Below are positions 2,317 through 62,169 of a stretch of 64,000 nt of DNA, one piece after another. The DNA comes from Ostreococcus lucimarinus. Its lineage: Eukaryota. Within the stretch, counting starts at the first letter, position 1; every line of letters begins with the position of its first letter. The translations under genes were made by a program, and so were the position numbers. The notes under the pieces were generated by a model that searched no databases, was not told where the DNA came from, and saw nothing but the letters and a program-made list of their open reading frames with translations. The stretch is taken from NCBI GenBank assembly GCA_000092065.1, contig CP000591.1. The stretch is one strand, 5' to 3'.

Positions 2317-4134
2317 ATGGAGAACGCGGCGCTGCGCGATGCGCGCGCGGTGACGCACGGAGCGGCGTCGGCGAGCGCGGACGTTGAAATCGGTGATGAT
2401 GGATGCGCGATCGCGGGCGGGCGCGCGCGAGAGACGCGCGCGGGAGGACGCGGGGGGTGGTTGACGGCCGGCGCGTGCGCGGCGGCGTGCGGGCTGGGCG
2501 TCGCGCTCGCGATGGCGGGATCGCGAAATGGTGACGAGACGGGCGGACGCGGCGTGATCGCGCGCGAGGACATCGATGTGCGACGTTTCGTGGCGGTGCC
2601 GATGCTCGGATCGAAGAGGGGACGCCGGGGGACGTCGTCGAAGCGCGGCGACGACGACGACGACGCGCCGGGGCTCGGGATCGATGGTGACGACGACGTC
2701 CCGCCGTTCGCGGCGAATACGGGATATTTTGCCTACGAGGAATGGTTCAAAAAATTCACGCATGGGAAGAGCCCTGGGGAAAGTAAGCGCGAACTCGCGG
2801 GCGCGGCGGCGGCGACGCCGATTCAAGAGAGCGCGCATCGCGGCGTCGTCGATTCGGATGGTTGGAAGACGATTCGAGACGATTTGAGGCACGCTGGCGG
2901 TAAACGTAAGTTATTGCTACTTCTGCGCCACGGCCAGGCGACGCATAACGCGTGGGGTGATACTGTCGACGAAGAGTTGGAGACGCTGCCGTGCACGTGG
3001 CGAGACCATGGTGACTTACTCGATCCGTCGCTCACGGATCGCGGCGTAGAGCAAGCTTTGACGACGCGTGCCTCGCTCACGACGAGAGATGGGTTCTTTA
3101 AGGCGATTCGAGGCGGCTCAGACAAAAAGGATAGAATTCGCGTGGCTTCGTCGCCGCTCTCACGAGCGATGGAAACCGCCATCATCGTCACGTCTGGCGT
3201 CGATCACATCTCGCGTCCGATTGCTGTCACGGACTACTTGCGCGAGCGCATCGAACTCAACGCCCCGTTTGAAGTTCGCCGACCGATCTCCATAGACGAG
3301 GGCGAAGACTCGGACGCGTCGAAGTTGATCAAGAATTCCCACGCGCACGGATGCAAATTCCACAAAGGTTTGCGCGAGCTCTACGGCGACGACGCATTCA
3401 TGCTCAACGTAGAGACGCATCACAAGCATCACTCGGATTGTAGGGTCGACAAGACGACTCCGCTGTCGTACACGCACTGCGGCGGCCTCACGCTCACGCA
3501 CGAGGCCGATTTGGAGTTGGGTGACGAGAGGGAGGAGAACATCATCGCAATGATGAATCGCGTGAAAGTCGTCCTCGCCAACGTCTTCGACAGGTACGAC
3601 GAAGAAGTGGTCATGCTCGTCACGCATTCCGACTTTATCATTTCGGCGTTGATGGAGTTATATCCCGACACGCTCGGTTTTGTACCACAAAACGGCGAAG
3701 TGGTACCCATCGTCGTCGAGGACCGCCGAACGAATCATTTGCCTGAGGCGCACGCCACGGACGATGACGCGAGTGAAACGGCGTCGAAAGCCAAGACAAA
3801 ATCAAAGGCTGCGGTCGGTGAGGCGGATCACAACAGGAAGCACGCCAAAAGCGAAGACGAAGAAACAGAAGATCGCACGGCGCGTGGGAAGAAGTCGATG
3901 CGAGCGAAGGCTTCGACGGGCGACGAAATCGTCGTAGATTCAGATTCTTCCGGTCCGGCGGCGACGATCAAATACTTCGATGACGACGATCAGACGGCGA
4001 AAGAATCCGCCACGCGGCACAAATCTAGAAAGCGTGAAGCTTCTCTCGGGAATGATTTGTCCCGTCGCGTCGAGGAATCGCTAAAAAATTTCCACAAACA
4101 ATTTGAGCGCTCTGCGGACCTCGGTAGTGAATAG
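2317..4134 (+). CDS. Histidine phosphatase superfamily (phosphoglycerate-mutase-like) protein with N-terminal TM segment and K/E-rich C-terminal tail
   Basis: RHGQATHN catalytic motif (RHG signature), SSPLSRAMETA and VTHSDFI motifs of branch-1 histidine phosphatases. ATG at 2317 preceded by CTATAAAA at 2305-2312. N-terminal extent is uncertain. Confidence 0.65.
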   Translation: MENAALRDARAVTHGAASASADVEIGDDGCAIAGGRARETRAGGRGGWLTAGACAAACGLGVALAMAGSRNGDETGGRGVIAREDIDVRRFVAVPMLGSKRGRRGTSSKRGDDDDDAPGLGIDGDDDVPPFAANTGYFAYEEWFKKFTHGKSPGESKRELAGAAAATPIQESAHRGVVDSDGWKTIRDDLRHAGGKRKLLLLLRHGQATHNAWGDTVDEELETLPCTWRDHGDLLDPSLTDRGVEQALTTRASLTTRDGFFKAIRGGSDKKDRIRVASSPLSRAMETAIIVTSGVDHISRPIAVTDYLRERIELNAPFEVRRPISIDEGEDSDASKLIKNSHAHGCKFHKGLRELYGDDAFMLNVETHHKHHSDCRVDKTTPLSYTHCGGLTLTHEADLELGDEREENIIAMMNRVKVVLANVFDRYDEEVVMLVTHSDFIISALMELYPDTLGFVPQNGEVVPIVVEDRRTNHLPEAHATDDDASETASKAKTKSKAAVGEADHNRKHAKSEDEETEDRTARGKKSMRAKASTGDEIVVDSDSSGPAATIKYFDDDDQTAKESATRHKSRKREASLGNDLSRRVEESLKNFHKQFERSADLGSE

Positions 4135-35867: not shown

Positions 35868-35983
35868 TGACCCAGGCAGGAGTCGAACCCGCAACCTTCA
35901 GATAACTTCAACGGCGTCCTCGCGTTCGCGAGGAGACTCTCGAATCACTGGAGTCTGACGCACTACCATTGTGCTACCGAGCC
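35868..35983 (-). tRNA. tRNA-Trp (anticodon CCA) with 44-nt intron at the canonical 37/38 position
   Basis: Minus-strand cloverleaf: GGCTCGG-TA-GCAC-AATGGTA-GTGC-G-TCAGA-CTCCAG[44-nt intron]A-TCTGA-AGGTT-GCGGG-TTCGACT-CCTGC-CTGGGTC-A. A-box and B-box present. The oligo-T pol III terminator is on the minus strand; on the plus strand it appears as AAAAAAA around 35836-35842. Confidence 0.8.
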
Positions 35984-39068: not shown

Positions 39069-40433
39069 TCACTTCGGGCCGTCGCCCTCGCCCAGGACGG
39101 TCTTTTGGCGCTTCGCGTCGCGCGCGTCGCCGACGCTGAAGACGTCGTCGAAGGTTTCGAGCGCGTTTAAAAACGCCTGGTCCATGTTGAAGTACTTGTA
39201 ACTCGCGAGGCGGCCGACGAAGACGACGCCGGGCTCTTTCGCCGCCATGTCGCGGTACTTTTCGTATAACTCGCGGTTGGCGGGGTTGGGAACGGGGTAA
39301 TACGGCTCGCCGTGATCGCACGAGTACTCTTTGAAGACGACGGTGCCCGCGTGCTCGCGCGCCTCGCGCGGCTGGTTGGGCTTGTGCTTGTACTCGACGA
39401 CGCGCGTGTGCTCGACTTCCGGACCGGGGTAGTTGAGCTGTAAGCACGGTTGGTAGAAGAATGGTTTCGTTTTGTCCTCGCCCTCGTGGTACTCTTCGAA
39501 GAAACGCAGACTTCGGTACTCGAGCTTGGGCAAACCTTGAGACGCGTACCACGCGTCGATGGGGCCGGTGAAGACGACGAACTTTCGCGCCTTGCTTCTC
39601 AACATGTCTTTGTGCTCAAAAAAGTCGGTGTTCAGGCGCACGGTGATGTTCGGATCGCCCATGATCATATTTTCGAAAATCCTCGTGTACCCGTGCTTCG
39701 GCAACGCTTGGTGCGGATCGCTAAAGTACCTATCGTCGACGTCTTCGCGCACGGGTATCCTCGCCAAGACGCTCGCGTCCAGCTCCTCGGGGTACTTATC
39801 CCACTGCTTCTTCGTGTAATGCTTAAATATCGCCTCGTACAGCTCCGCCCCCGCCCTCGTCAGCGCGCTCTCTTCTCCGTTCTTCGGATTCTCGTTCACC
39901 GACCGTCTGGCGTCCAACCATCTTCGCGCGTCCTCGTCCGTCTTCAAATCCGCCTCGGGAAACAGCGCGTTGATCGTGTCCCTGTTCGGCGGCACCCCCA
40001 CGATTCGGTACCGCCTCCCCCCGTGTTCGTACTCCCCGTCCTCGCGCTCGATCGCCGCCTTCACTCGGTGTTCGTACGGCGTCCACTCGCTGAATCGATT
40101 CACGTATTCCCACACCCGCGCGTGCTTCGTGTGAAACAAGTGCACGCCGTACTGCGACACCCTGAACCCCTTCGCGTTCACGAAGTCGTAGCAGTTCCCG
40201 CCGACGTGATCGCGCTTGTCCACGAGAAGCGTCTTCATCCCGAGCTCTCGCGACGCGCGGCTCGCGAAGACGCAGCCCGAGATGCCGGCGCCGACGACGA
40301 CGAGGTCGAACTCGCGGTCGCGAATCCGCGCGTCGCTCGCGACGCCGGCGAACCAGCTCGGATCGTGGTCGTTGCCGCGACGGACGGAGACGTCCACGCC
40401 CGCCCACTCGTCGGCGTCGGCGCGCGCGCGCAT
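39069..40433 (-). CDS. GLF: UDP-galactopyranose mutase (eukaryotic-type UGM/Glf, galactofuranose biosynthesis)
   Basis: FAD motif FDLVVVGAGISGCVFA...LLVDKRDHVGGNCYD and conserved eukaryotic UGM blocks (GYTRIFENMI, FTGPIDAWY, YRSLRFF, NYPGPEVEHTRVVEYKH, YYPVPNPANRELYEKY). ATG at 40433. The track ORF extends upstream through an antisense (ATT)n tract. Confidence 0.85.
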   Translation of the reverse strand: MRARADADEWAGVDVSVRRGNDHDPSWFAGVASDARIRDREFDLVVVGAGISGCVFASRASRELGMKTLLVDKRDHVGGNCYDFVNAKGFRVSQYGVHLFHTKHARVWEYVNRFSEWTPYEHRVKAAIEREDGEYEHGGRRYRIVGVPPNRDTINALFPEADLKTDEDARRWLDARRSVNENPKNGEESALTRAGAELYEAIFKHYTKKQWDKYPEELDASVLARIPVREDVDDRYFSDPHQALPKHGYTRIFENMIMGDPNITVRLNTDFFEHKDMLRSKARKFVVFTGPIDAWYASQGLPKLEYRSLRFFEEYHEGEDKTKPFFYQPCLQLNYPGPEVEHTRVVEYKHKPNQPREAREHAGTVVFKEYSCDHGEPYYPVPNPANRELYEKYRDMAAKEPGVVFVGRLASYKYFNMDQAFLNALETFDDVFSVGDARDAKRQKTVLGEGDGPK

Positions 40434-40648: not shown

Positions 40649-40661
40649 ATGGGCGCCGCGC

Positions 40662-40723
<62 letters not shown>

Positions 40724-41467
40724 CCGCGCGACGCCGCGCGCGCGTCGTCGTCGCCGCCGGACGACGACGCGCCGACGCTCGCGCGCGCGCGCGAGGACGA
40801 CGCGACGCTGCGAACGAGCGAACCGTTGTTGACGCCGCGCGTGGCGCGCGCGCTGCGAGCGCGCGTCGAGCCGAGGGCGGGCGCGGTGACGTGGACGCGC
40901 GCGTTCGATTCGCGCGCGTGCGGATTGGCGAGTCTTCGTCGCGTCGTCGAGCGGTGCGCGGGCGTCGGACGCGCGCTCGTGCTCGTGCAACCCGAGGCGG
41001 CGGACGAGGCCGAGGCCGAGGACGAGGACGAGGCGTACTACGTCGCGCACGTCTCACCGGGTTTCCAAGCGAAGCCTCGGCACGATTTCCACGGCGACGA
41101 CGCGTGCAAGACGTTTCGCGTCGACGGAAAACGCGGCGTCGTCGTCGACACGTCCGGGGTCTCCGTCGCGCCGCTGTATTGCGCGTACGGCTACTCCCGA
41201 CACGGCGACGTCGTCAACGGGTTCGGGATGTTCGGTAAGATCGGGCGCCACGCCTTATTCGTGGACGCCGCCCTGGAAAACGCGCACGCGGACTTCGGCG
41301 CGCGTCGCTTCTCCGTGCGTCGCGTCGAAGTCTGGGCGCTTGAGGCGCGCGCGCCCGGAATCGACGCCGGCGCTTCGCCGCGCGCGGCGACGCGCGATCG
41401 AGCGACGATGGCGCAGTTTACGTCATCCGCGATCGCCCGCGACGTCCTCGACGCCACGACCGGCTGA
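40649..41467 (+). CDS. Hypothetical protein with N-terminal (SSP)8 repeat; its last 293 bp form the start of the 945-bp repeat R
   Basis: ATG at 40649 followed by (CCGTCGTCG)n encoding PSSPSSPSS.... C-terminal region ...RRFSVRRVEVWALEARAPG.... The ORF is continuous across the left boundary of repeat copy A (41175). Unknown family. Confidence 0.4.
40661..40726. repeat. 9-bp microsatellite (CCGTCGTCG)x7, coding (SSP)n on + and read as (ATT)n in the antisense UGM track ORF
   Basis: Directly visible tandem 9-mer. Confidence 0.85.
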
Positions 41468-41480
41468 CATCAAGACCGCG

Positions 41481-41655
41481 ACGGAACGTCGAGGAAAGAT
41501 CTCGTCGACGCGCTGTTTCGCGAGTGCGGCGGACCAGAAGGTGTGGGAGGCGCTGACGGATACGCGCGGCGTACGAGGCGACGTTCGCGGCGATTGAGGA
41601 CGCGCGTCGCGCGAGATAGATGATAGATTGATACTAGATAGATCTGATGCAGCTC
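41481..41655 (+). pseudogene. Pseudo-copy of the 3' end (last about 45 codons plus about 40 bp of 3' UTR) of the ENY2-like gene at 50492..50875, embedded in repeat R copy A
   Basis: CGTCGAGGAAAGATCTCGTCGACGCGCTGTTTC...GTGTGGGAGGCGCTGACGGATACGCG...GCGTCGCGCGAGATAGAT...AGATCTGATG matches 50705-50920, with an 18-bp deletion between GCGGAC repeats and a few substitutions. Out of context and not in an ORF with a start. Confidence 0.6.
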
Positions 41656-41663
41656 CTAGGCAG

Positions 41664-41684
41664 TCTCCTACGCGGTAGGAGACC
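41664..41684. other. Perfect 9-bp inverted repeat with 3-nt loop (GTCTCCTAC-GCG-GTAGGAGAC) hairpin
   Basis: Located exactly where homology to the 50.7-kb locus ends inside repeat R. Duplicated at 44101-44121. Confidence 0.7.
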
Positions 41685-41806
41685 TTGTTGTAACATACGA
41701 TGTACGACGGATCCAAAAAGTGCGAGCACGTCACCGTCGACGACCCGTCCTCGAGCGCGCGAGCGCGACGCGCCGTTTTCAGTGACAAAAAAGAATGGCA
41801 ACTTTG

Positions 41807-41993
41807 TTACCTCACCGGGATTCGAACCCGAGTCTGTTCGTGGAAGCGCGTGGCGTGTCCGTCAGTGTCGCGTTCACAATTTTTGGTGTCAACGTGTCCG
41901 TTCGCGTGTTCACGTGCGATGGGCGCGAAGATGCGTAGAATACGTACCTCTAGGGTGAAAGCCTAGCGTGATAACCATCTACACTATGAAGTA
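41807..41993 (-). tRNA. tRNA-like pol III gene (cloverleaf with anticodon UUC, Glu-like; Val-like D-arm) interrupted by a 115-nt insertion in the variable loop; within repeat R copy A
   Basis: Minus strand: TACTTCA-TA-GTGT-AGATGGTTA-TCAC-G-CTAGG-CTTTCAC-CCTAG-AG[GTACGT...115 nt...CAG]AC-TCGGG-TTCGAAT-CCCGG-TGAGGTA-A. All four stems pair; U33 and A37 are present. A-box TAGTGTAGATGG and B-box GGTTCGAATCC. T6 terminator 15 nt downstream (plus-strand A-run 41787-41792). The insert at 41834-41948 has GTACGT, ACTGAC and CAG. Confidence 0.45.
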
Positions 41994-42119
41994 CCGCTCG
42001 ACCCCGCAAGGGGCCGCAGCGATCGATCTCTCCGATGTTTCGGAGTTCACGGGATGTACTCATGTTTCAGCTCGTCCACACTTTCGTGTGGCTAGATAGA
42101 GATGTGTGCGGCTTGACAC

Positions 42120-42170
42120 GACGACGAGGTCGAACTCGCGGTCGCGAATCCGCGCGTCGCTCGCGACGCG
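42120..42170. pseudogene. 51-bp fragment copied from the 5' coding region of the UGM gene (40299-40349)
   Basis: GACGACGAGGTCGAACTCGCGGTCGCGAATCCGCGCGTCGCTCGCGACGC is identical except at the last base to the UGM segment encoding ..IRDREFDLVVV.. Sits immediately after repeat copy A. Confidence 0.6.
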
Positions 42171-42359
42171 GCGTCGTCGCGCGTCGTCGCTCGCGGGTGC
42201 GCGCGCGGCGCCATCACCGCGCGCCGCGAAGTGACGACGCCCGCGCCGCTCAGGAAAAATTTATATATCGCCCCTTTAGAGAGTACCTACACACATGACG
42301 AGTCATGAACCAAGGATGCGGGGAGATCTCGCCGTCGGCGCCACTCGTCGCCGCATACG

Positions 42360-43376
42360 ATGACCGATTCAGTCGCGCACGCCTCACCGACGTGGAGAAC
42401 GTACTCATTAGACCCGTCGCTGCAACCGGACTGGATGAACGGCACGGCGGAGGTAGAGGCGGTCAAAACAGCGGAGGATGAACTCGAGCGCTCGTACAAG
42501 AACAAGCCATTCTTCAAGAACACAAGCTACGAGGCATTCGCCAGAAAACGAGGCGAGTATGATAAACCGACGCCCGACGGCCTCGAGGAGTTCAAGCGTC
42601 TCCTACGGGCGAGTTATCTTCGCACCGTAGAGCGCATCGATGAAGATACCCAAGTTCTGGAAGCCCAGCTACAAGACGAGAATATCTCTGAAACGCGACG
42701 GTCGGTTATCCCGCAGCACATCGAGGACACTCGTGCGAAATTAAAAGAGCAAGACAATTCATTGAACGCGCTGTGCGCCGATGTGGATGCGGTTATCGCA
42801 GATTTGAAAGGCTTGCCCGATAAAATTGCCGACATAAAAGAACACGCCTCTGAACAACTTCAGCAACACAAAAGAAAAAGAACCAGTATATCTTTGGAAC
42901 GCAACCTCGAGGAGCTGAGCGATGCGCTGCGCAGCTACGAGGCGAAAAAAGAACAGGAGAGGCTCACAATTACCGATTATCGTGGGAAATATGGGTCATG
43001 TCCATCCCAGTATGTTCGCCAGACCGCCTGGGCACGCAGACCTTCTGGTCGTGAAGAAATTAGCTTCATTGTTCATCCTGTGGGTGTCATTGGCTGCGAT
43101 GGCAGTAACCTGAGCGTTGATGGACGTGTTTCGATTGATGGTTATGGTGAGTTTAACGTACCAAAATGGCAGCCTGAATGGGGACCTGAGAAGCAAATGT
43201 GTGCGTGCGAATGCTTCCAAGAGTGGTACAAAGTCGACGCCCAAGACCTTCTTTACAGCGCGCTTCGTGGCGTAGAGGGCGCGCTAAAGGCGCTCAGTGG
43301 TTCGGGAGATGACACGTCTTCGCTTCGACGGCGCTTGGGCGATGCCAATTTGGACGAAGCAAGCACGGGGAGTTAA
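42360..43376 (+). CDS. Orphan 338-aa ORF with atypical (lower-GC) codon usage, central coiled-coil-like region, Cys/Trp-rich C-terminal part
   Basis: ATG at 42360, uninterrupted 1017 nt in a region where lower GC makes chance ORFs of this length unlikely. No recognisable domain. Confidence 0.5.
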   Translation: MTDSVAHASPTWRTYSLDPSLQPDWMNGTAEVEAVKTAEDELERSYKNKPFFKNTSYEAFARKRGEYDKPTPDGLEEFKRLLRASYLRTVERIDEDTQVLEAQLQDENISETRRSVIPQHIEDTRAKLKEQDNSLNALCADVDAVIADLKGLPDKIADIKEHASEQLQQHKRKRTSISLERNLEELSDALRSYEAKKEQERLTITDYRGKYGSCPSQYVRQTAWARRPSGREEISFIVHPVGVIGCDGSNLSVDGRVSIDGYGEFNVPKWQPEWGPEKQMCACECFQEWYKVDAQDLLYSALRGVEGALKALSGSGDDTSSLRRRLGDANLDEASTGS

Positions 43377-43410
43377 TATATGTGGACGTATATTTTGTTG
43401 TCCACGAATG

Positions 43411-43437
<27 letters not shown>

Positions 43438-43447
<10 letters not shown>

Positions 43448-43611
43448 CGCCTCCAGTCTCGACACAGTATCACTGAGTTCACTGCGAAGTTCGTCGATTT
43501 GCTGATCTCTCGAGGCAACGGCGGCCTCTAAATCGGCGATTTGAGCGTCGTGCTCGACGATTCTTTCGTGCAGCTCCTGGTTTGACTTGACGAGCACAGG
43601 AATGATTTGAG
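43438..43611 (-). pseudogene. 5'-truncated minus-strand ORF remnant (coiled-coil-like ...ELHERIVEHDAQIADLEAAVASRDQQIDELRSELSDTVSRLEAVESG*) cut off by the boundary of repeat copy B
   Basis: Open frame ends with TAG at 43438-43440 (plus-strand CTA) and runs without a start into the R boundary at 43611/43612. Low-GC composition like the adjacent ORF. Confidence 0.35.
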
Positions 43612-44556
43612 TGTATTGCGCGTACGGCTACTCCCGACACGGCGACGTCGTCAACGGGTTCGGGATGTTCGGTAAGATCGGGCGCCACGCCTTATTCGTG
43701 GACGCCGCCCTGGAAAACGCGCACGCGGACTTCGGCGCGCGTCGCTTCTCCGTGCGTCGCGTCGAAGTCTGGGCGCTTGAGGCGCGCGCGCCCGGAATCG
43801 ACGCCGGCGCTTCGCCGCGCGCGGCGACGCGCGATCGAGCGACGATGGCGCAGTTTACGTCATCCGCGATCGCCCGCGACGTCCTCGACGCCACGACCGG
43901 CTGACATCAAGACCGCGACGGAACGTCGAGGAAAGATCTCGTCGACGCGCTGTTTCGCGAGTGCGGCGGACCAGAAGGTGTGGGAGGCGCTGACGGATAC
44001 GCGCGGCGTACGAGGCGACGTTCGCGGCGATTGAGGACGCGCGTCGCGCGAGATAGATGATAGATTGATACTAGATAGATCTGATGCAGCTCCTAGGCAG
44101 TCTCCTACGCGGTAGGAGACCTTGTTGTAACATACGATGTACGACGGATCCAAAAAGTGCGAGCACGTCACCGTCGACGACCCGTCCTCGAGCGCGCGAG
44201 CGCGACGCGCCGTTTTCAGTGACAAAAAAGAATGGCAACTTTGTTACCTCACCGGGATTCGAACCCGAGTCTGTTCGTGGAAGCGCGTGGCGTGTCCGTC
44301 AGTGTCGCGTTCACAATTTTTGGTGTCAACGTGTCCGTTCGCGTGTTCACGTGCGATGGGCGCGAAGATGCGTAGAATACGTACCTCTAGGGTGAAAGCC
44401 TAGCGTGATAACCATCTACACTATGAAGTACCGCTCGACCCCGCAAGGGGCCGCAGCGATCGATCTCTCCGATGTTTCGGAGTTCACGGGATGTACTCAT
44501 GTTTCAGCTCGTCCACACTTTCGTGTGGCTAGATAGAGATGTGTGCGGCTTGACAC
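43612..44556. repeat. 945-bp direct repeat R, copy B (duplicate)
   Basis: See copy A. Ends 144 bp upstream of the USP39 start codon. Confidence 0.9.
44244..44430 (-). tRNA. Second copy of the tRNA-like gene with 115-nt insertion (in repeat R copy B)
   Basis: Identical to 41807-41993 shifted by 2437 bp. Confidence 0.45.
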
Positions 44557-50491: not shown

Positions 50492-50875
50492 ATGCCTCGC
50501 CCCACCCCCGCGCCGCCGCCGCCGCCGGCGGCGCGCGACGTCGACGTCGAGCGCGACGCGCTCACCGCGATGCGCAAAGACGGCACGCTCGACGCCCTGC
50601 GCGCGCGCGCGGTCGAGCGCGTTCGCGCGGACCCAGAGATGAAAACCTTCACGGAATTCGCGGCGCGCGCGTCGCAGACGCTGCGCGACCCGCGAGCGAG
50701 GCGCGCGTCGAGGAAAGATCTCGTCGACGCGCTGTTTCACGAGTGCGGCGGACAGATTTTGAAGCAGGCGGACCAGAAGGTGTGGGAGGCGCTGACGGAT
50801 ACGCGCGACGAACTCGGCCGCGCGGCGTACGAGGCGACGTTCGCGGCGATGGAGGACGCGCGTCGCGCGAGATAG
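50492..50875 (+). CDS. Small (127-aa) ENY2/Sus1-like protein (tentative); source locus of the gene fragment copied into repeat R
   Basis: ATG at 50492. Pattern ..KDGTLDALRARAVERV.. and ..KDLVDALFHECGGQILKQADQKVWEAL.. loosely follows ENY2 helices. The last about 45 codons and 3' UTR recur at 41481-41655 and 43918-44092. Confidence 0.45.
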   Translation: MPRPTPAPPPPPAARDVDVERDALTAMRKDGTLDALRARAVERVRADPEMKTFTEFAARASQTLRDPRARRASRKDLVDALFHECGGQILKQADQKVWEALTDTRDELGRAAYEATFAAMEDARRAR

Positions 50876-51157
50876 ATACCGATAGATAATAGATTGATAA
50901 TACATAGATCTGATGTAGCTGATGCCGCCGCCGTCGCGTCGGACGGATCGCCTCGGTCGCCTTCGGTTCGCTTCTCGGCGGCGGCCGCCGACGCGGACGC
51001 CGCCGCGCGTCGCGGTCGTCATGCGCGCGGTTGTGCGGCGACGATTTATTTTACGCCGCGCGACGGGCGAGCGACGCCGGCGAATCGAGCGACGCTGAAT
51101 GCCCGTACGCTGGAATCGCGCGCGAACGCTGACGCGACGATTCGTCCGAGTGGGTGG

Positions 51158-57259: not shown

Positions 57260-57785
57260 GGCCGCCGCGGTGCGCCGTCGTCGGCGGCGGCGTCGCGTCG
57301 GCGTCGCGGACGCGAGTCCCCTCCGATCGACGAGTGCTGACCCACGAACACGTATTTAAGCCACAAAACGCCACTGTAATCGAACCGCGCGACGCGAGTC
57401 CCCTCCGATCGACGAGTGCTGACCCATAAACACGTATTTAAGCCACAAAACGCCCGCGTAATCGAACCGCGCGACGCGAGTCCCCTCCGATCGACGAGTG
57501 CTGACCCACGAACACGTATTTAAGTCACAAAACGCCCGTGTAATCGAACCGCGCGACGCCGACCCCACCCGCGCGCGCGACGCGGCGCGCCATTCGACGC
57601 CGCTCGAGGTGCGCGACGCGACGCGACGCGACGGCGCGACGCGCGAAACCCGACGAACGATGGCGACGATCGACGCGACGGCTCGCGGCGCGGGCGCGCG
57701 CGACGACGGCGCGACGCGACGGCGAACGATGACTGACGCGAGGCGATCACGCCGTTTGCGCAGAGACGGAAATCGCGCACGCGCG
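57260..57785. promoter_or_regulatory. Divergent promoter region between DJ-1 (minus) and VDAC (plus), containing the 82-bp x3 repeat with TATTTAAG motifs
   Basis: Position between two divergently oriented start codons. TATA-like motifs repeat three times. This is inference only. Confidence 0.4.
57312..57557. repeat. 82-bp tandem repeat x3 in the DJ-1/VDAC divergent promoter region
   Basis: Units start at 57312, 57394 and 57476, with about 95% identity. Each carries CACGTATTTAAG (TATA-like) and, on the other strand, GGTTCGATTAC (B-box-like). Confidence 0.85.
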
Positions 57786-59253
57786 CGCGAACGACATGGC
57801 GAAGTACTACGGCGACATCGCGAAATCGGCGAAGGGTGCGTGGGAGATCGACGACGACGGCGGGGGGGGGGAGACGCGAGGGCGCGAGGATGGATTGAGG
57901 GAGGATCGGGGGGACGCGCGCGAGGGCGACGACGCGCGCGGGGCGAGGACGACGAAGGACTGACGATGCGATCGATCGCGCGCGCGCAGACTTGCTCACG
58001 GGCGGGTTCAATTATGACACGAAGGTTTCCGTCGATACTAAGTCGGCCGGGACGGTGCGTGAGGCGCGGAAGCGCGAGGCGAGGCGACGGCGGAGAGACG
58101 CGAGGCGAGCGGCGGACGACGGACGACGACGGCGCGAGGGGGTCCGCGCGCGCGGTCGAGCGCTCGAGCGCGGCGCGCGGGAGGGCGGTCGATGGGGATA
58201 TATTTTGCGTCGTCGAGCGGCGCGCGCGCGCGAGGTTCGCGGGACTGACTTTCGGAATGGGTGCGTTTTTCGACGTCGCAGGGCGTGTCCGCCTCCGTCG
58301 TTCAAAAGGGCGAGGCGGTGAGCGGCGACTTGAAGGTGAACGCGAACGTTGTCGATCAAGTGATCGACATCGAGTTGAACCAAGATGCCAAGGCGAAGGT
58401 GACTGCGTCTTTCCCGTCTCTCATCCCCAACGGAAAGCTTTCCGTCGGCGGTACGGTGCAAGATCTCGAAACCGTCAAGGTTTCCGCTTCGGTGCTCGCC
58501 GGTCCCCTCGGCGTCAAGGCTGACGTCGCCAACTACGCGGCGCCGAAGGCCGATGCGAGCTTGTGCTATGCCATCGGTGGTGGCTTCGCGGTCGGCGCCA
58601 TGGCGACGATCAAGAGCTCCTCCGCGTTGGCGTACACGGTCGCGGCGCAATCCAAGCAAGGCGACGTCACGTACGCGTTGACGGCGGCGGATCAATTCAA
58701 GACGTTCAAGGCCAGCGTGGTGACCGCGTTGGACAGCAAGCAAACCCTTGGTGCCGAAGTGGTTTACAAGAAGGCGGCGACGGCGACGATCGGCTACTCC
58801 AAGAAGATGGATGGCCACTCTTTCAAAGCCGTCGTCGCCAACCCGGTGAGCGCCGAGTTCAACCCGACGCTCTCCGTGCACGCGAGCCTCGGGAGCTTGA
58901 TCCCGAAGACGACCGCCACGATCAGCTGCCAAGTGGACAAAACGGTACGTACGACGACATTTTCTTCTCGGAGTCGGAATCGACGATGCTCTCGACGACG
59001 CGACCCTTCTTCACGGCGCCTATTGTCAAACAATCGCCGTTCCGCCCGTGTTCGGATGGTTGCCGCGGGTTGCCAACATCAACAATGCTCGAAGATGGTG
59101 CCCGCGCTTCTCCGTGCGCGGTGCGCCATAAATAGTATTAATATTTCGCGTCACAAATTCTCGATCGTGTCACTGACCGCGCGCGACGGTTTCTCCCTTT
59201 CGAAACAACAGATGAAGTACAAGTACGGCTTCCAGTTCGCGACCAAGCTTTGA
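57786..59253 (+). CDS. VDAC: VDAC (mitochondrial outer-membrane porin); 4 exons: 57786..57825, 57980..58044, 58282..58944, 59212..59253
   Basis: Exon 1 MAKYYGDIAKSAK-, exon 2 -DLLTGGFNYDTKVSVDTKSAGT and exon 3 GVSASVVQKGEAVSGDLKVNANV... reproduce the VDAC N-terminal helix and first strands (compare plant [36 protein letters not shown]). C-terminal exon MKYKYGFQFATKL*. Introns start GTGCGT / GTGCGT / GTACGT, each has ACTGAC about 30 nt before CAG, and the phases are consistent (1, 0, 0). The track ORF 58261..59253 begins at GTG and reads through the in-frame intron 3. Confidence 0.8.
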
Positions 59254-59505
59254 TCGAGACGGCTCGGACAGCTTCCGTTAGAACACTAGCACGCCGACCC
59301 CGTTCGCCGAATCGCTCGTCATTTCTTCCTCGAGCGAGGTGGTGACTTTTAAAGTATACAATACAATATCACGACGGAACGAGCGCCGCGTCCCGAGCGG
59401 CGCTCGCCTCCCGAGCCGTCCGCGTCGCGCGTCGACGTTCCTCTAACACTAATCCACCATATTCACCGACGATCGTCGATCGTCACACACCGTCGCGCAC
59501 CCACG

Positions 59506-62169
59506 ATGGCGGTGCCGCCGGGAACGGGAAATCGACAGTTTGTCGATGACGCGCAGGTGCGTAAACGGACCGCACGCGCGCGCGTCGCGCGTTACGTGTC
59601 GCGCAAGCGTCGCGAATTCGTCACGCGATCGTCGAGACGCGATGAATCGTGCGCGCGGAACGCACCGTGTGGAAGCGCGAAGAAGGGGTTGAACGACCCG
59701 AATTCGCGTCTCGCGGGCGTGGTCGCGGGATGCGCGCTCGATGCGCGCGCGCGCGCCGTCTGAACGACGCGAAAGACGCGATGAAGACGCGTTCGCGCTC
59801 GACGAGCGCGAGAGCCAGAGGACTGACGCGACGCCGCGACGTTTTCCAACCCGTAGATCGCGGAGGAGCAGCGCGAGCTCGACACCAAGCTGCGATCGAC
59901 GAATACGCGGGATAAACTCGATGCGCTGAAGAGGCTGATCGCGCTCATGGCGACGGGACGAGACGTGAGCGTGTTTTTTCCCTCCGTCGTGGTGAACATC
60001 GTGAGCGAATCGTTCGAGGTGAAGGTGTTGGTGTACATGTTCTTGGTGCGAACGGCGGATCAGAAGCCCGAGGAGGCGCTTTTATCGATCAATTCGTTTC
60101 AGAAGGATCTGGCGCACCCGAACCCGAGAGTGCGGGCGTTAGCGCTTCGAGTGATGTCAAGCATTCGCATCCAGGTCATCGTGCCGGTGGTTATATTGGC
60201 GGCGCGAAAGTGCGCGGTTGATCCGAGTCCGTACGTGCGCAAATCGGCGGCGCATGCGATCCCAAAAATTTACAGAATGGATAACACGCGAAAGGAAGAG
60301 CTCATCGAAATCATCGAAACGATGTTGCGCGACAGTACGCCCTTTGTGTTGTCGTCCGCGGTGGCGGCGTTCACCGAGGTGTGCCCGGACAGGATCGATT
60401 TGTTGCATCGACACTACCGCAAGATTTGCCGCATGTTGGTAGACATGGACGAGTGGGGACAGATTTTGTTGAGCGAGCTCCTGCTCAGGTACGCGCGATC
60501 GCAGTTTTTGGCCCCCGACGCGCACACGCGCGAGCTCGGCGGCGTTTCGGGTAAAGGGGAAAAGAAGCTCGAACTCGCGCTTCCTTCGACAAACGAAGCC
60601 TCTTACCACGAATCCAACAACGCCGGGATCCAGTCGATCGTGGCGAGTGGCGCGGCGTTCTATTCCGATTCCGATGAGGAGGAGGAAGACTCCGACGATG
60701 ACAGCGACGATAGCGACGGAGGCAAGGCGAAGAAGGCGGGCAAGTCGAGCGGCGGCGCCACGGCTGAGTCTCGCGGTCCAGGTTGGATGGACGAAGACCA
60801 TCGTCTTTTGTTGCGTTGCACGCGTCCGTTACTGCAGTCTCAAAACGCTGGCGTCGTTATGGCTGTTGCGGCGCTGCACTTTTACCTGAGCCCAGCTGCG
60901 GACTTGCCCAAGGTTGTTCGAGCGTTGGTTTTCACAGCGCACGGCAGGCCCGAGGTGCGACATGTCGTCATCAAGAACATTTGTACCATGGTCACCACGC
61001 AGCCGATATTGTTCCAGTCGCACTTCAATGCGTTCTTCGTCACTCCACGAGATCCGTTGCAAGTCCGCGCTCTGAAACTCGAAATCTTGACGCACATCGT
61101 CACGAGCGAAAACGCGCCCACGCTGTTGAGAGAGCTTCAAGCTTACTTGCGCTCATCAAACCACGATTTTGTGGCGCTGACGATTCGAGCCATCGGAAGG
61201 TGCGCGGCCATAATGCCGCAAATCGCATCAGTGTGCATCCGCTCTTTGCTCGAACTTTCGCTTCATCCTTCGCCAAAGGTTGCGTCTGAAGCAGTCGTCG
61301 TCATTCGCGCCTTGGTGCAACAAAATCCGAAGGAGCACATCGTCGTGGTGATGCGCTTGATGCGTCGATTGGACTCATTGATCGCCCCCGAAGCGCGCTC
61401 AGCGGTGATTTGGCTCGCGGGTGGTGAGATCTTTGATGGCGACGCGGAGAACATCAAGGCGTCTGATAAGGAACTCCGTGAAAAGTTCTTTGAACTCGCA
61501 GTGCAAATGATGCGTCGCGTCGTCAAGAGCTTCCCAGATGAACACGAGATGACGAAGCAGCAAATCGTGAACACATCGTGCAAGATGTACATCCAAGATC
61601 CCATCCGCATCGCGCCAATGCTCAAAGTCGTATTTGCGCTCGCTGCTGCGGATCCTTCGGTGGACATGCGCGATCGAATTCGCGTCTTCCGCGCCCTCTT
61701 CCCCGTGGACGGGAAGCCGAGCGCGGTCAAGCACTTCGGAGACGCCGTCGTGCTGTGCGCCAAACCTGAGCCCAAACTCCCGTCACCCGCGATGCAAACG
61801 TGCGAGCACGCGCTCGGTTCTCTGTCGCATTTCATGGATCACATGGCGCCAGGGTACACGCCGCTCGCGAAGCATCCGACGGTGCAACCGCCGACGAATG
61901 TTCGCGAGCAATACTTCGCCGGGGGATCGGGCAGAGAAGGCTCCTCAGCCATTGCGGTGCACAACGGCAAATCCAACGGCCTCGGTGCGAGTGGATTCTA
62001 CAGCTCTAGCGATGACAGCGATGATAGCGACAGTGATTCGAGTAGTTACACGGGGAGCGACGATTCAGACGATAGCTCGGATGACTCTGGTGATTCCTCA
62101 GACGACGACGAAGACGAAGACGAAGACGACGAATCGGACGATTCCTCGTCGTCGAACGACTCGGATTAG
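59506..62169 (+). CDS. AP3B: AP-3 complex beta subunit (beta-3 adaptin); 2 exons: 59506..59556, 59857..62169
   Basis: Exon 1 MAVPPGTGNRQFVDDAQ, then GTGCGT donor at 59557, ACTGAC branch at 59822 and TAG acceptor at 59854-56. Exon 2 IAEEQRELDTKLRSTNTRDKLDALKRLIALMATGRDVSVFFPSVV... matches the AP3B1 N-terminus (..[26 protein letters not shown]..). Adaptin-N HEAT repeats continue, with an acidic Ser/Asp-rich hinge at the C-terminus. Confidence 0.8.

Follow-up and report, generated by a model that had tools for sequence, protein, structure and literature searches.

A copied gene end at the edge of an inverted TLDc-like gene in Ostreococcus lucimarinus

How does the end of one gene come to lie directly behind the stop codon of another? 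The question is raised by a 64,000-nt stretch of DNA from Ostreococcus lucimarinus CCE9901 (in the following, the window), in which a TLDc-like gene (40649..41467, plus strand; weak Pfam TLD match, E 5.8e-4) is followed by a piece that matches the 3' end of a small gene further downstream. The original prediction had recognized this match and took the piece for a pseudo-copy that was captured at the DNA level inside a repeat, R, and then duplicated together with it. In the reading that we consider moderately probable, the piece would be filler that was copied from a DNA template in the course of a rearrangement next to a tRNA gene, and it would later have decayed by slippage.

The fragment, its source and the adjoining hairpin

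In a MAFFT alignment of 41470-41700, 43907-44137 and 50690-50930 and in a self-BLAST of the window, a plus-strand stretch of 168 bp (41487..41654) is collinear with 50706..50920 on the same strand, and an identical twin stands at 43924..44091 (plus strand) in the second copy of R. The source segment comprises the last 56 codons, including the stop codon at 50873-50875, of a 127-aa gene (50492..50875, plus strand), followed by 45 nt of AT-rich 3' flank. The collinearity runs through coding sequence, stop codon and the AT-rich patch past the stop; in the copy, the coding-derived part occupies 41487-41620 and the AT-rich downstream part extends to 41654. Self-BLAST resolves the match into three blocks, 41487-41538 versus 50706-50756 (96%, E 1.8e-16), 41528-41568 versus 50767-50807 (100%, E 3e-14) and 41563-41643 versus 50819-50898 (91%, E 3e-24), and the second R copy gives the same three matches, offset by 2437 bp. 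The postulated pseudo-copy of a gene's 3' end is thus borne out by collinear identity that is not of the low-complexity type, and only its outlines shift: the match had been placed at 41481-41655, but the identity extends from 41487 to 41654; it begins 19 nt past the TGA (41465-41467) of the TLDc-like gene and not 13 bp past it; and the source had been given as 50705-50920 with about 45 codons and about 40 bp downstream. Source and copy lie on the same strand, with the source downstream, at a distance of 9.2 kb in the window and of 6.8 kb in the arrangement with a single R.

Could such a match be trivial? The region is GC-rich and contains many CG-repeat families, and a chance similarity of simple sequence, or else an assembly artefact, would therefore be an obvious objection. 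However, the blocks are collinear, their E-values range from 1e-14 to 1e-24, and the non-repetitive AT-rich part is matched as well, so that chance similarity is rejected; an artefact is rejected because the same structure is found in many independent assemblies. We regard the probability of either as practically negligible.

The direction of copying follows from the protein sequences. Homologues of the 127-aa protein, which is conserved in Ostreococcus-like lineages, are 52-57% identical to it and keep the residues encoded by two segments of 20 and 17 nt that are absent from the copy (…ECEGKVLDEARATVWDALTD..DGVGREAY…). As distant homologues retain what the copy lacks, the gene at 50492..50875 is the source and the version in R is the degraded copy. 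The label "ENY2-like", which the gene had been given, could not be upheld: the protein and three homologues have no Pfam EnY2 match at E<=10, the best weak Pfam match among them is COMPASS-Shg1 in one homologue (E 0.07), Pfam returns nothing for the 127-aa gene itself, and a PDB profile search retrieved no ENY2/Sus1 chain. The gene is thus not demonstrably ENY2.

Three indels of 20, 17 and 10 nt, all of them at short direct repeats, separate copy and source, as do a few substitutions. The first indel is a loss of 20 nt from the copy between 7-nt GGCGGAC repeats, the second a loss of 17 nt between CGCGCG repeats, and the overlaps of the self-BLAST blocks mark both of these deletions. A single 18-bp deletion at GCGGAC had been proposed, of which the deletion at a direct repeat stands, but its length, the repeat and the number of indels had to be revised. 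The third indel is a 10-nt gap inside the GATAGATA tandem past the stop codon; its polarity is undecidable, and it may represent an expansion in the window's source instead of a loss in the copy. Substitutions amount to 2 in 133 aligned coding-derived nucleotides, and in the downstream part 7 of 35 aligned positions differ, a number inflated by the alignment around the 10-nt indel (about four by eye). The copy shares the frame of the TLDc ORF, which has a chance of one in three, with the TGA between the two, and it is out of frame after the first deletion. The fragment is a non-coding, 5'-truncated and dead pseudo-copy that is not to be annotated as a gene.

Eight nucleotides past the fragment end begins a perfect palindrome with a 9-bp stem and a 3-nt loop (GTCTCCTAC-GCG-GTAGGAGAC; 41663..41683, second copy at 44100-44120), which is invariant in the sister lineage described below. 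A perfect 9-bp/3-nt hairpin had been predicted, albeit one base off (41664-41684) and as the point at which the match ends. RNA folding of 41440-41720 revealed no unusual stability (z -1.3), and the 9-bp hairpin alone is robust. A gene fragment that adjoins a hairpin resembles the products of Helitron or Pack-MULE capture, and the hairpin could accordingly be thought of as the terminus of a Helitron-like or Pack-type transposon that brought the fragment along. In contrast to such elements, the structure occupies a single locus and has no element termini. A metagenome scan detected the hairpin with the GCG loop only here, with other loop variants on unrelated contigs, and its interpretation as a dispersed repeat or as the end of a transposon is therefore rejected. 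Directly after the hairpin, CTTG opens the sequence CTTGTTGTAAC; no CTRR was seen 10-12 nt past the hairpin, there is no 5' TC, and there are neither terminal inverted repeats nor a target-site duplication. We therefore consider transposon capture to be very improbable. The original prediction had also suggested a search for further copies elsewhere, which for the hairpin did not turn up in the metagenome scan, and for the fragment not in the about 0.7 Mb of Ostreococcus sequence compared.

Age of the insertion and later duplication of the locus

Marine-metagenome contigs of the same locus (numbered L001 and so forth) were collected by look-up of the window's proteins in public assemblies. A sister lineage (L017-L020) was found through its UCH/USP39-like neighbour, the UCH being 80-89% and R about 94.6% identical to the window. 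Two deeper clades, L022/23 on the one hand and L021 with L024/25 on the other, have UCH proteins that are 64-67% identical to that of the window and about 60% identical to each other.

The fragment is present in every haplotype examined at the locus, i.e. in those with a single R (L001-3, L006), in the sister lineage (L017-20), and also in L028, L033, L034 and L037-L039. At both of its ends, the junction sequence (…GACGGAA|CGTCGAGG… and …GCAGCT|CCTAGGCA…) is the same in all contigs examined, including the sister contigs L038 and L039, and because of this identity the junctions indicate one capture that predates the split of the two lineages, namely a single insertion in an ancestor shared by O. 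lucimarinus and its sister lineage, which is about 5% diverged. The 3' flank of the sister lineage's own gene has been largely rewritten, whereas its copy retains a GATAGAT-rich flank like that of the window's source. The copy is therefore a fossil in which the ancestral 3' flank survives after that of the gene itself was rewritten in the sister lineage, in agreement with a single old capture.

The decay of the copy can be followed in both lineages. In the source, a quasi-repeat with a period of 17 nt is formed by CGCG-ACGAACTCGGC and CGCGCG-GCGTACGAGGC. Of these two units, the copy of the window type has retained the second and that of the sister type the first, so that in the sister copy ACGAACTCGGC is kept and CGCGCGGCGTACGAGGC is missing, and the reverse holds for the window copy. 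In addition, the first deletion measures 37 nt in the sister lineage versus 20 nt in the window type. Because the lineages carry different deletions, at least some of these occurred after the capture, independently, by slippage between short repeats, and the slippage-type origin that had been proposed for the deletion is thereby supported. All post-capture deletions fall into the coding-derived part; in the downstream part together with the hairpin, the lineages differ at only 2 of 71 nt, with more change upstream. The copy has decayed chiefly through the loss of small segments flanked by short direct repeats, partly independently in the two lineages, and with its parallel 17-nt slippage deletions in one quasi-repeat the fragment provides a natural record of neutral gene-fragment decay. 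The source genes of the two lineages differ at 8 of 170 positions, as compared to 2 of 133 between copy and source in the window lineage, and this low copy-source divergence leaves room for later gene conversion from the source, which may have taken place.

The fragment is present twice in the window only because the 945-bp R was later duplicated. R1 (41175..42119, plus strand) contains the last 97 TLDc codons, the fragment, the hairpin and the tRNA gene; R2 (43612..44556, plus strand) is identical to it at 945 of 945 positions and is continued by the ancestral flank and by the UCH gene. In single-R haplotypes (L001-3, L006), 42119 is joined directly to 44557 without any insert, and the fragment is nevertheless present. 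Other haplotypes have the duplicated R (L004, L005, L010-13), so that the duplication is polymorphic, and the arrangement with an inserted segment, E, between the R copies is borne out by the independent contigs L005, L010, L011 and L013. This structure is best described as a recent segmental (tandem) duplication around an inserted 1.4-kb segment. The proposal that the duplication of R is younger than the capture is confirmed by the single-R haplotypes and the sister lineage, which carry the fragment, and by the polymorphism and identity of the R copies. The idea that a repeat R had captured the fragment has to be abandoned: R does not belong to a repeat family but is ordinary local sequence that was later duplicated around the insert.

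The junction between R1 and the insert contains a second, younger templated patch, which the original prediction had missed. It comprises 57 nt (42118..42173, plus strand) copied from 40294-40350, the 5' coding region of GLF 1.8 kb upstream, in genomic orientation and with a 2-nt microhomology (AC) to the end of R. It is followed by about 70 nt of GC-rich sequence (to 42244) whose source is not in the window, and then by segment E (42245..43615, plus strand; 1.4 kb, lower GC), which joins R2 via a 4-nt microhomology, TGTA.

Segment E contains a 338-aa ORF (42360..43376), which corresponds to XP_001420301.1 of O. lucimarinus CCE9901 by exact look-up and has no Pfam match, and the 3' remainder of a convergent coiled-coil ORF, 54 aa in the window as against 102 aa when complete. 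The fucosyltransferase encoded nearby falls into one cluster with XP_001420471.1. Among the metagenome contigs, E occurs in at least three genomic contexts (L007 9810-11382, shared by L007/8; L009 3766-5342; L004 1380-2911). In L004 it is inverted between the R copies (96% identity), in L005 it has an internal deletion of 455 bp, and L010 suggests more than one R-E unit. E may thus be a mobile or repeatedly copied unit, but some of the short metagenome contigs may be chimeric assemblies. No viral relative of E or of the fragment was found in IMG/VR, and a viral origin of either is thus unsupported there.

The inversion and the origin of the insertion

In both deeper clades (L022/23 and L021, L024/25), the gene order is DPOA2(-) GLF(-) TLD(-) … tRNA-Glu(-) UCH(+), and the TLD orthologue is thus on the minus strand, as is GLF. 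It was called in L022-L025 and detected by tblastn in L021-L025, with 33-36% identity and E-values of 1e-16 to 1e-31. Between the same neighbours, TLDc is found on the plus strand in the window as well as in L001-6 and L017-20. As L022 and L021+L024 are two separate deeper clades according to their UCH identities, and as both share the minus orientation, the simplest reading, which is rooted by these two outgroup clades, is a single-gene inversion of TLDc on the branch to O. lucimarinus and its sister lineage. The fragment sits at one edge of the inverted piece and hence at a rearrangement junction, which had also escaped the original prediction.

Some further features of the TLDc-like gene were noted. 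It evolves fast, with 33-36% identity as compared to 64-67% for the neighbouring UCH, and the copy number of a 9-bp SSP repeat in its N-terminal region (40659-40726) varies among haplotypes, resulting in products of 264-272 aa. A protein search with the full TLDc was dominated by this low-complexity repeat and returned only two near-identical matches.

What kind of event leaves such a fragment at such a place? Filler DNA, i.e. templated insertions, is known, for instance from plants, at sites where double-strand breaks were repaired or rearranged ends were joined, with copying of the polymerase-theta or SDSA type, and the fragment resembles it in having a nearby template on the same chromosome, in being located at a junction, and in lacking target-site duplication and poly(A). 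The second patch at the locus, with its 57 nt and 2-nt microhomology at the younger junction, fits the same pattern. The fragment, originally about 215 nt, is longer than typical theta-type inserts, and the microhomology at its own ends is unreadable since the junction was made by the inversion and there is no empty site: the younger junctions display their 2 nt (AC) and 4 nt (TGTA), while the old junction has no pre-insertion sequence to compare with. A related process is FoSTeS/MMBIR, in which serial template switching after fork collapse generates complex rearrangements. An inversion, a copy from several kilobases away and a later duplication with joins of 2-4-nt microhomology, all of them beside a tRNA gene as a type of replication obstacle, are reminiscent of this process, but the events are here separated in time, with an old capture and a recent duplication, and the mechanism is read from scars only. 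The fragment also resembles partial dead-on-arrival duplicates, as it has neither start codon nor promoter and degenerates by frameshifting deletions; unlike these, it lies exactly behind the stop codon of another gene, in the frame of that ORF, and may belong to its 3' UTR. Taken together, the scar is most likely of a known kind, a filler insertion at a rearrangement junction combined with a partial dead-on-arrival duplicate, and as such an ordinary by-product of DNA repair, albeit at a site next to the tRNA gene that is unstable to an unusual degree.

According to the templated-filler reading, a break or a collapsed replication fork would have arisen beside the tRNA-Glu gene during the flip of TLDc. 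A free 3' end would then have been extended by about 215 nt along a template 6.8 kb away on the same chromosome and strand, and the copied piece would have been joined behind the TLDc stop by template switching of the MMBIR/FoSTeS or of an SDSA-like type. The non-coding copy would thereafter have decayed neutrally by slippage deletions, and much later, in some strains including CCE9901, a second, similar rearrangement would have duplicated R around the 1.4-kb segment. As tRNA genes stall replication forks and mark fragile sites, it is plausible that the tRNA gene next door caused the repeated breakage, and its role in the fragility would be by analogy to such sites. With this history, the fragment is of interest as a dated marker: within a single 1-kb site next to a tRNA gene, in an algal genome of great compactness, a single-gene inversion, a templated insertion and a much later, patched tandem duplication have come together.

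Inversion and insertion can be placed on the same branch, and that they occurred simultaneously, as a single event, we infer from their positions. A DNA fragment could instead have been inserted, or a small ectopic duplication could have taken place, independently of the inversion, before or after the flip, with its closeness to the junction being coincidental. Both changes map only to the same long branch, and without the fragment only about 170 nt would separate the tRNA gene from the TLDc stop, so that any insertion there is "at the junction"; in a genome of such compactness, any intergenic insertion falls near a gene end, which counts against the single-event reading. On the other hand, the fragment begins just 19 nt past the stop and TLDc itself lacks an AT-rich patch, as expected for a break at precisely this site, and the locus demonstrably makes patched junctions. 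We therefore regard a separate insertion as unlikely.

The template for the filler insertion would have been DNA, and the original prediction had likewise preferred DNA-level capture over retroposition. Like processed pseudogenes and other retrocopies, the fragment is 5'-truncated, includes stop codon and 3' flank, is non-coding and decays. One may thus envisage that a 5'-truncated cDNA of the small gene's mRNA, complete at its 3' end, patched a double-strand break behind TLDc, which would be retroposition in a broad sense without the hallmarks of LINE activity. The copy is indeed 3'-terminal and carries the stop together with the whole AT-rich post-stop patch, and the homology stops exactly at the end of this patch, 45 nt past the source's stop, which would be a plausible poly(A) site in a compact genome. 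The source has no intron in the copied part, and the lack of an intron in the copy is therefore uninformative with respect to an RNA or DNA template. However, the fragment ends show neither an A-run nor a flanking direct repeat or target-site duplication: in all haplotypes, CCTAGGCA and then the hairpin come after the copy, and A-run, poly(A) tract and target-site duplication are absent in more than 20 haplotypes including the sister lineage. A source 6.8 kb away on the same strand is another difference from retrocopies, and the younger patch at 42118-42173, which copies an internal stretch of the GLF 5' coding region in genomic orientation, looks DNA-templated. Patching by a cDNA is thus quite unlikely, and the preference for a DNA-level origin can be maintained, although the missing poly(A) and target-site duplication favour it without proving it.

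Irrespective of how the fragment arrived, its AT-rich tail could have acquired a function. An AT-rich patch past the stop is present behind the outgroup TLD genes and behind most neighbouring genes; behind TLDc it is absent, and the first such patch downstream of the TLDc stop is the captured one at 41615-41654. The 3' UTR of TLDc probably runs through the fragment. TGTAA is found behind only 3 of 11 genes checked in the window, so that it had to be rejected as a general poly(A) signal and is unusable for placing mRNA ends. Compatible with the templated-filler reading, one may tentatively envisage a terminator capture, to which we assign a low probability: the flipped TLDc would have lost its own 3' flank, and the tail pasted in from the neighbour, perhaps together with the hairpin, would supply its 3' UTR or 3'-end-formation signal and be kept by selection. 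The confinement of the post-capture deletions to the coding-derived part and the 2 changes in 71 nt of the downstream part and hairpin agree with this, but these counts are too small for significance, as an R divergence of about 5% predicts just 3-4 changes in 71 nt, and TGTAA-type signals are inconsistent in the window. If it were true, selection would keep a non-coding relic while the coding-derived spacer shrinks by deletions. More speculatively, a minus-strand transcript through the intron-bearing tRNA gene might read the copy in antisense, yielding RNA complementary to the mRNA of the small gene.

The source gene's own surroundings vary as well: in L001-L003, an extra piece of about 1 kb is found just downstream of it (window 50983-51056; L001 10492-11525), bounded by a repeat of about 80 bp (about 89% identical) and including a 282-aa minus-strand ORF, which is absent in CCE9901, L004-6 and most sister-lineage contigs.

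The interrupted tRNA gene beside the fragment

Within R, on the minus strand, lies a tRNA-Glu(UUC) gene (41807..41993; second copy 44244-44430) that is interrupted by a 114-nt insertion of the form GT..ACTGACG..CAG. With default settings, ARAGORN finds no tRNA in the window, whereas Rfam (41.5 bits for this gene) and ARAGORN with long introns allowed do so. At least three alleles exist in O. lucimarinus-like populations. An uninterrupted allele is found in L003 (3720-3960) and in the outgroups L021, L024 (9725-9804) and L025; an allele with an insertion of 114-117 nt at 45/46 is found in CCE9901, L004-7, L010-12, the sister lineage L017-20, L038 and L039; and a third allele, in L001 (3620-3960), L002 and L034, has two other insertions, of 118 nt at 33/34 and of 80 nt at about 68/69 in the 3' acceptor strand. 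Removing the insertions restores the exact tRNA.

All three insertions start with GT(A/G)(A/C)GT (GTACGT or GTGAGT), have ACTGACG 22-27 nt before their end, and end with YAG. The insertion at 45/46 varies beside these signals across haplotypes, and GTACGT, ACTGAC and YAG are always kept. Four genuine spliceosomal introns of the window (57836-59856) share this architecture; a VDAC ORF is rejoined by two of them, and the adaptin ORF becomes longer through another. For Ostreococcus introns, an extended branch motif has been published, GACTGACG (PMC3879977), which the tRNA insertions match. A bulge-helix-bulge was not seen in minimum-free-energy folds of the insertions, and an explanation of this type is therefore unsupported by these folds. 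Judged by their sequence signals, the insertions look like spliceosomal introns and are the most unexpected feature near the fragment, and the tRNA-Glu gene with these polymorphic insertions is the part of the locus that most deserves follow-up. Literature searches revealed no precedent for spliceosomal-type introns in tRNA genes or for introners in Ostreococcus. The nearest precedent is provided by fission yeast and certain other fungi, whose U6 snRNA genes have mRNA-type introns.

Behind the tRNA of the intronless L003 allele (3720-3860, reverse complement) come T7 and about 62 nt of inserted AT-rich sequence, after which the last 10 tRNA nucleotides recur together with CGGTTTTTT. This layout looks like a replacement by, or a conversion from, a paralogous tRNA-Glu locus, and because of this resemblance tRNA-Glu(UUC) may perhaps not be single-copy in all strains. 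A further tRNA gene of the window, at 35868-35983 on the minus strand (Rfam 52.7 bits), was also missed by default ARAGORN; it has an ordinary intron of about 43 nt beside the anticodon, without GT..ACTGAC..AG signals. Finally, a tandem repeat is located at 57305-57559, with a period of about 81-82 bp and three units that are 94-96% identical, and L004 and L005 differ there slightly in copy number and sequence.
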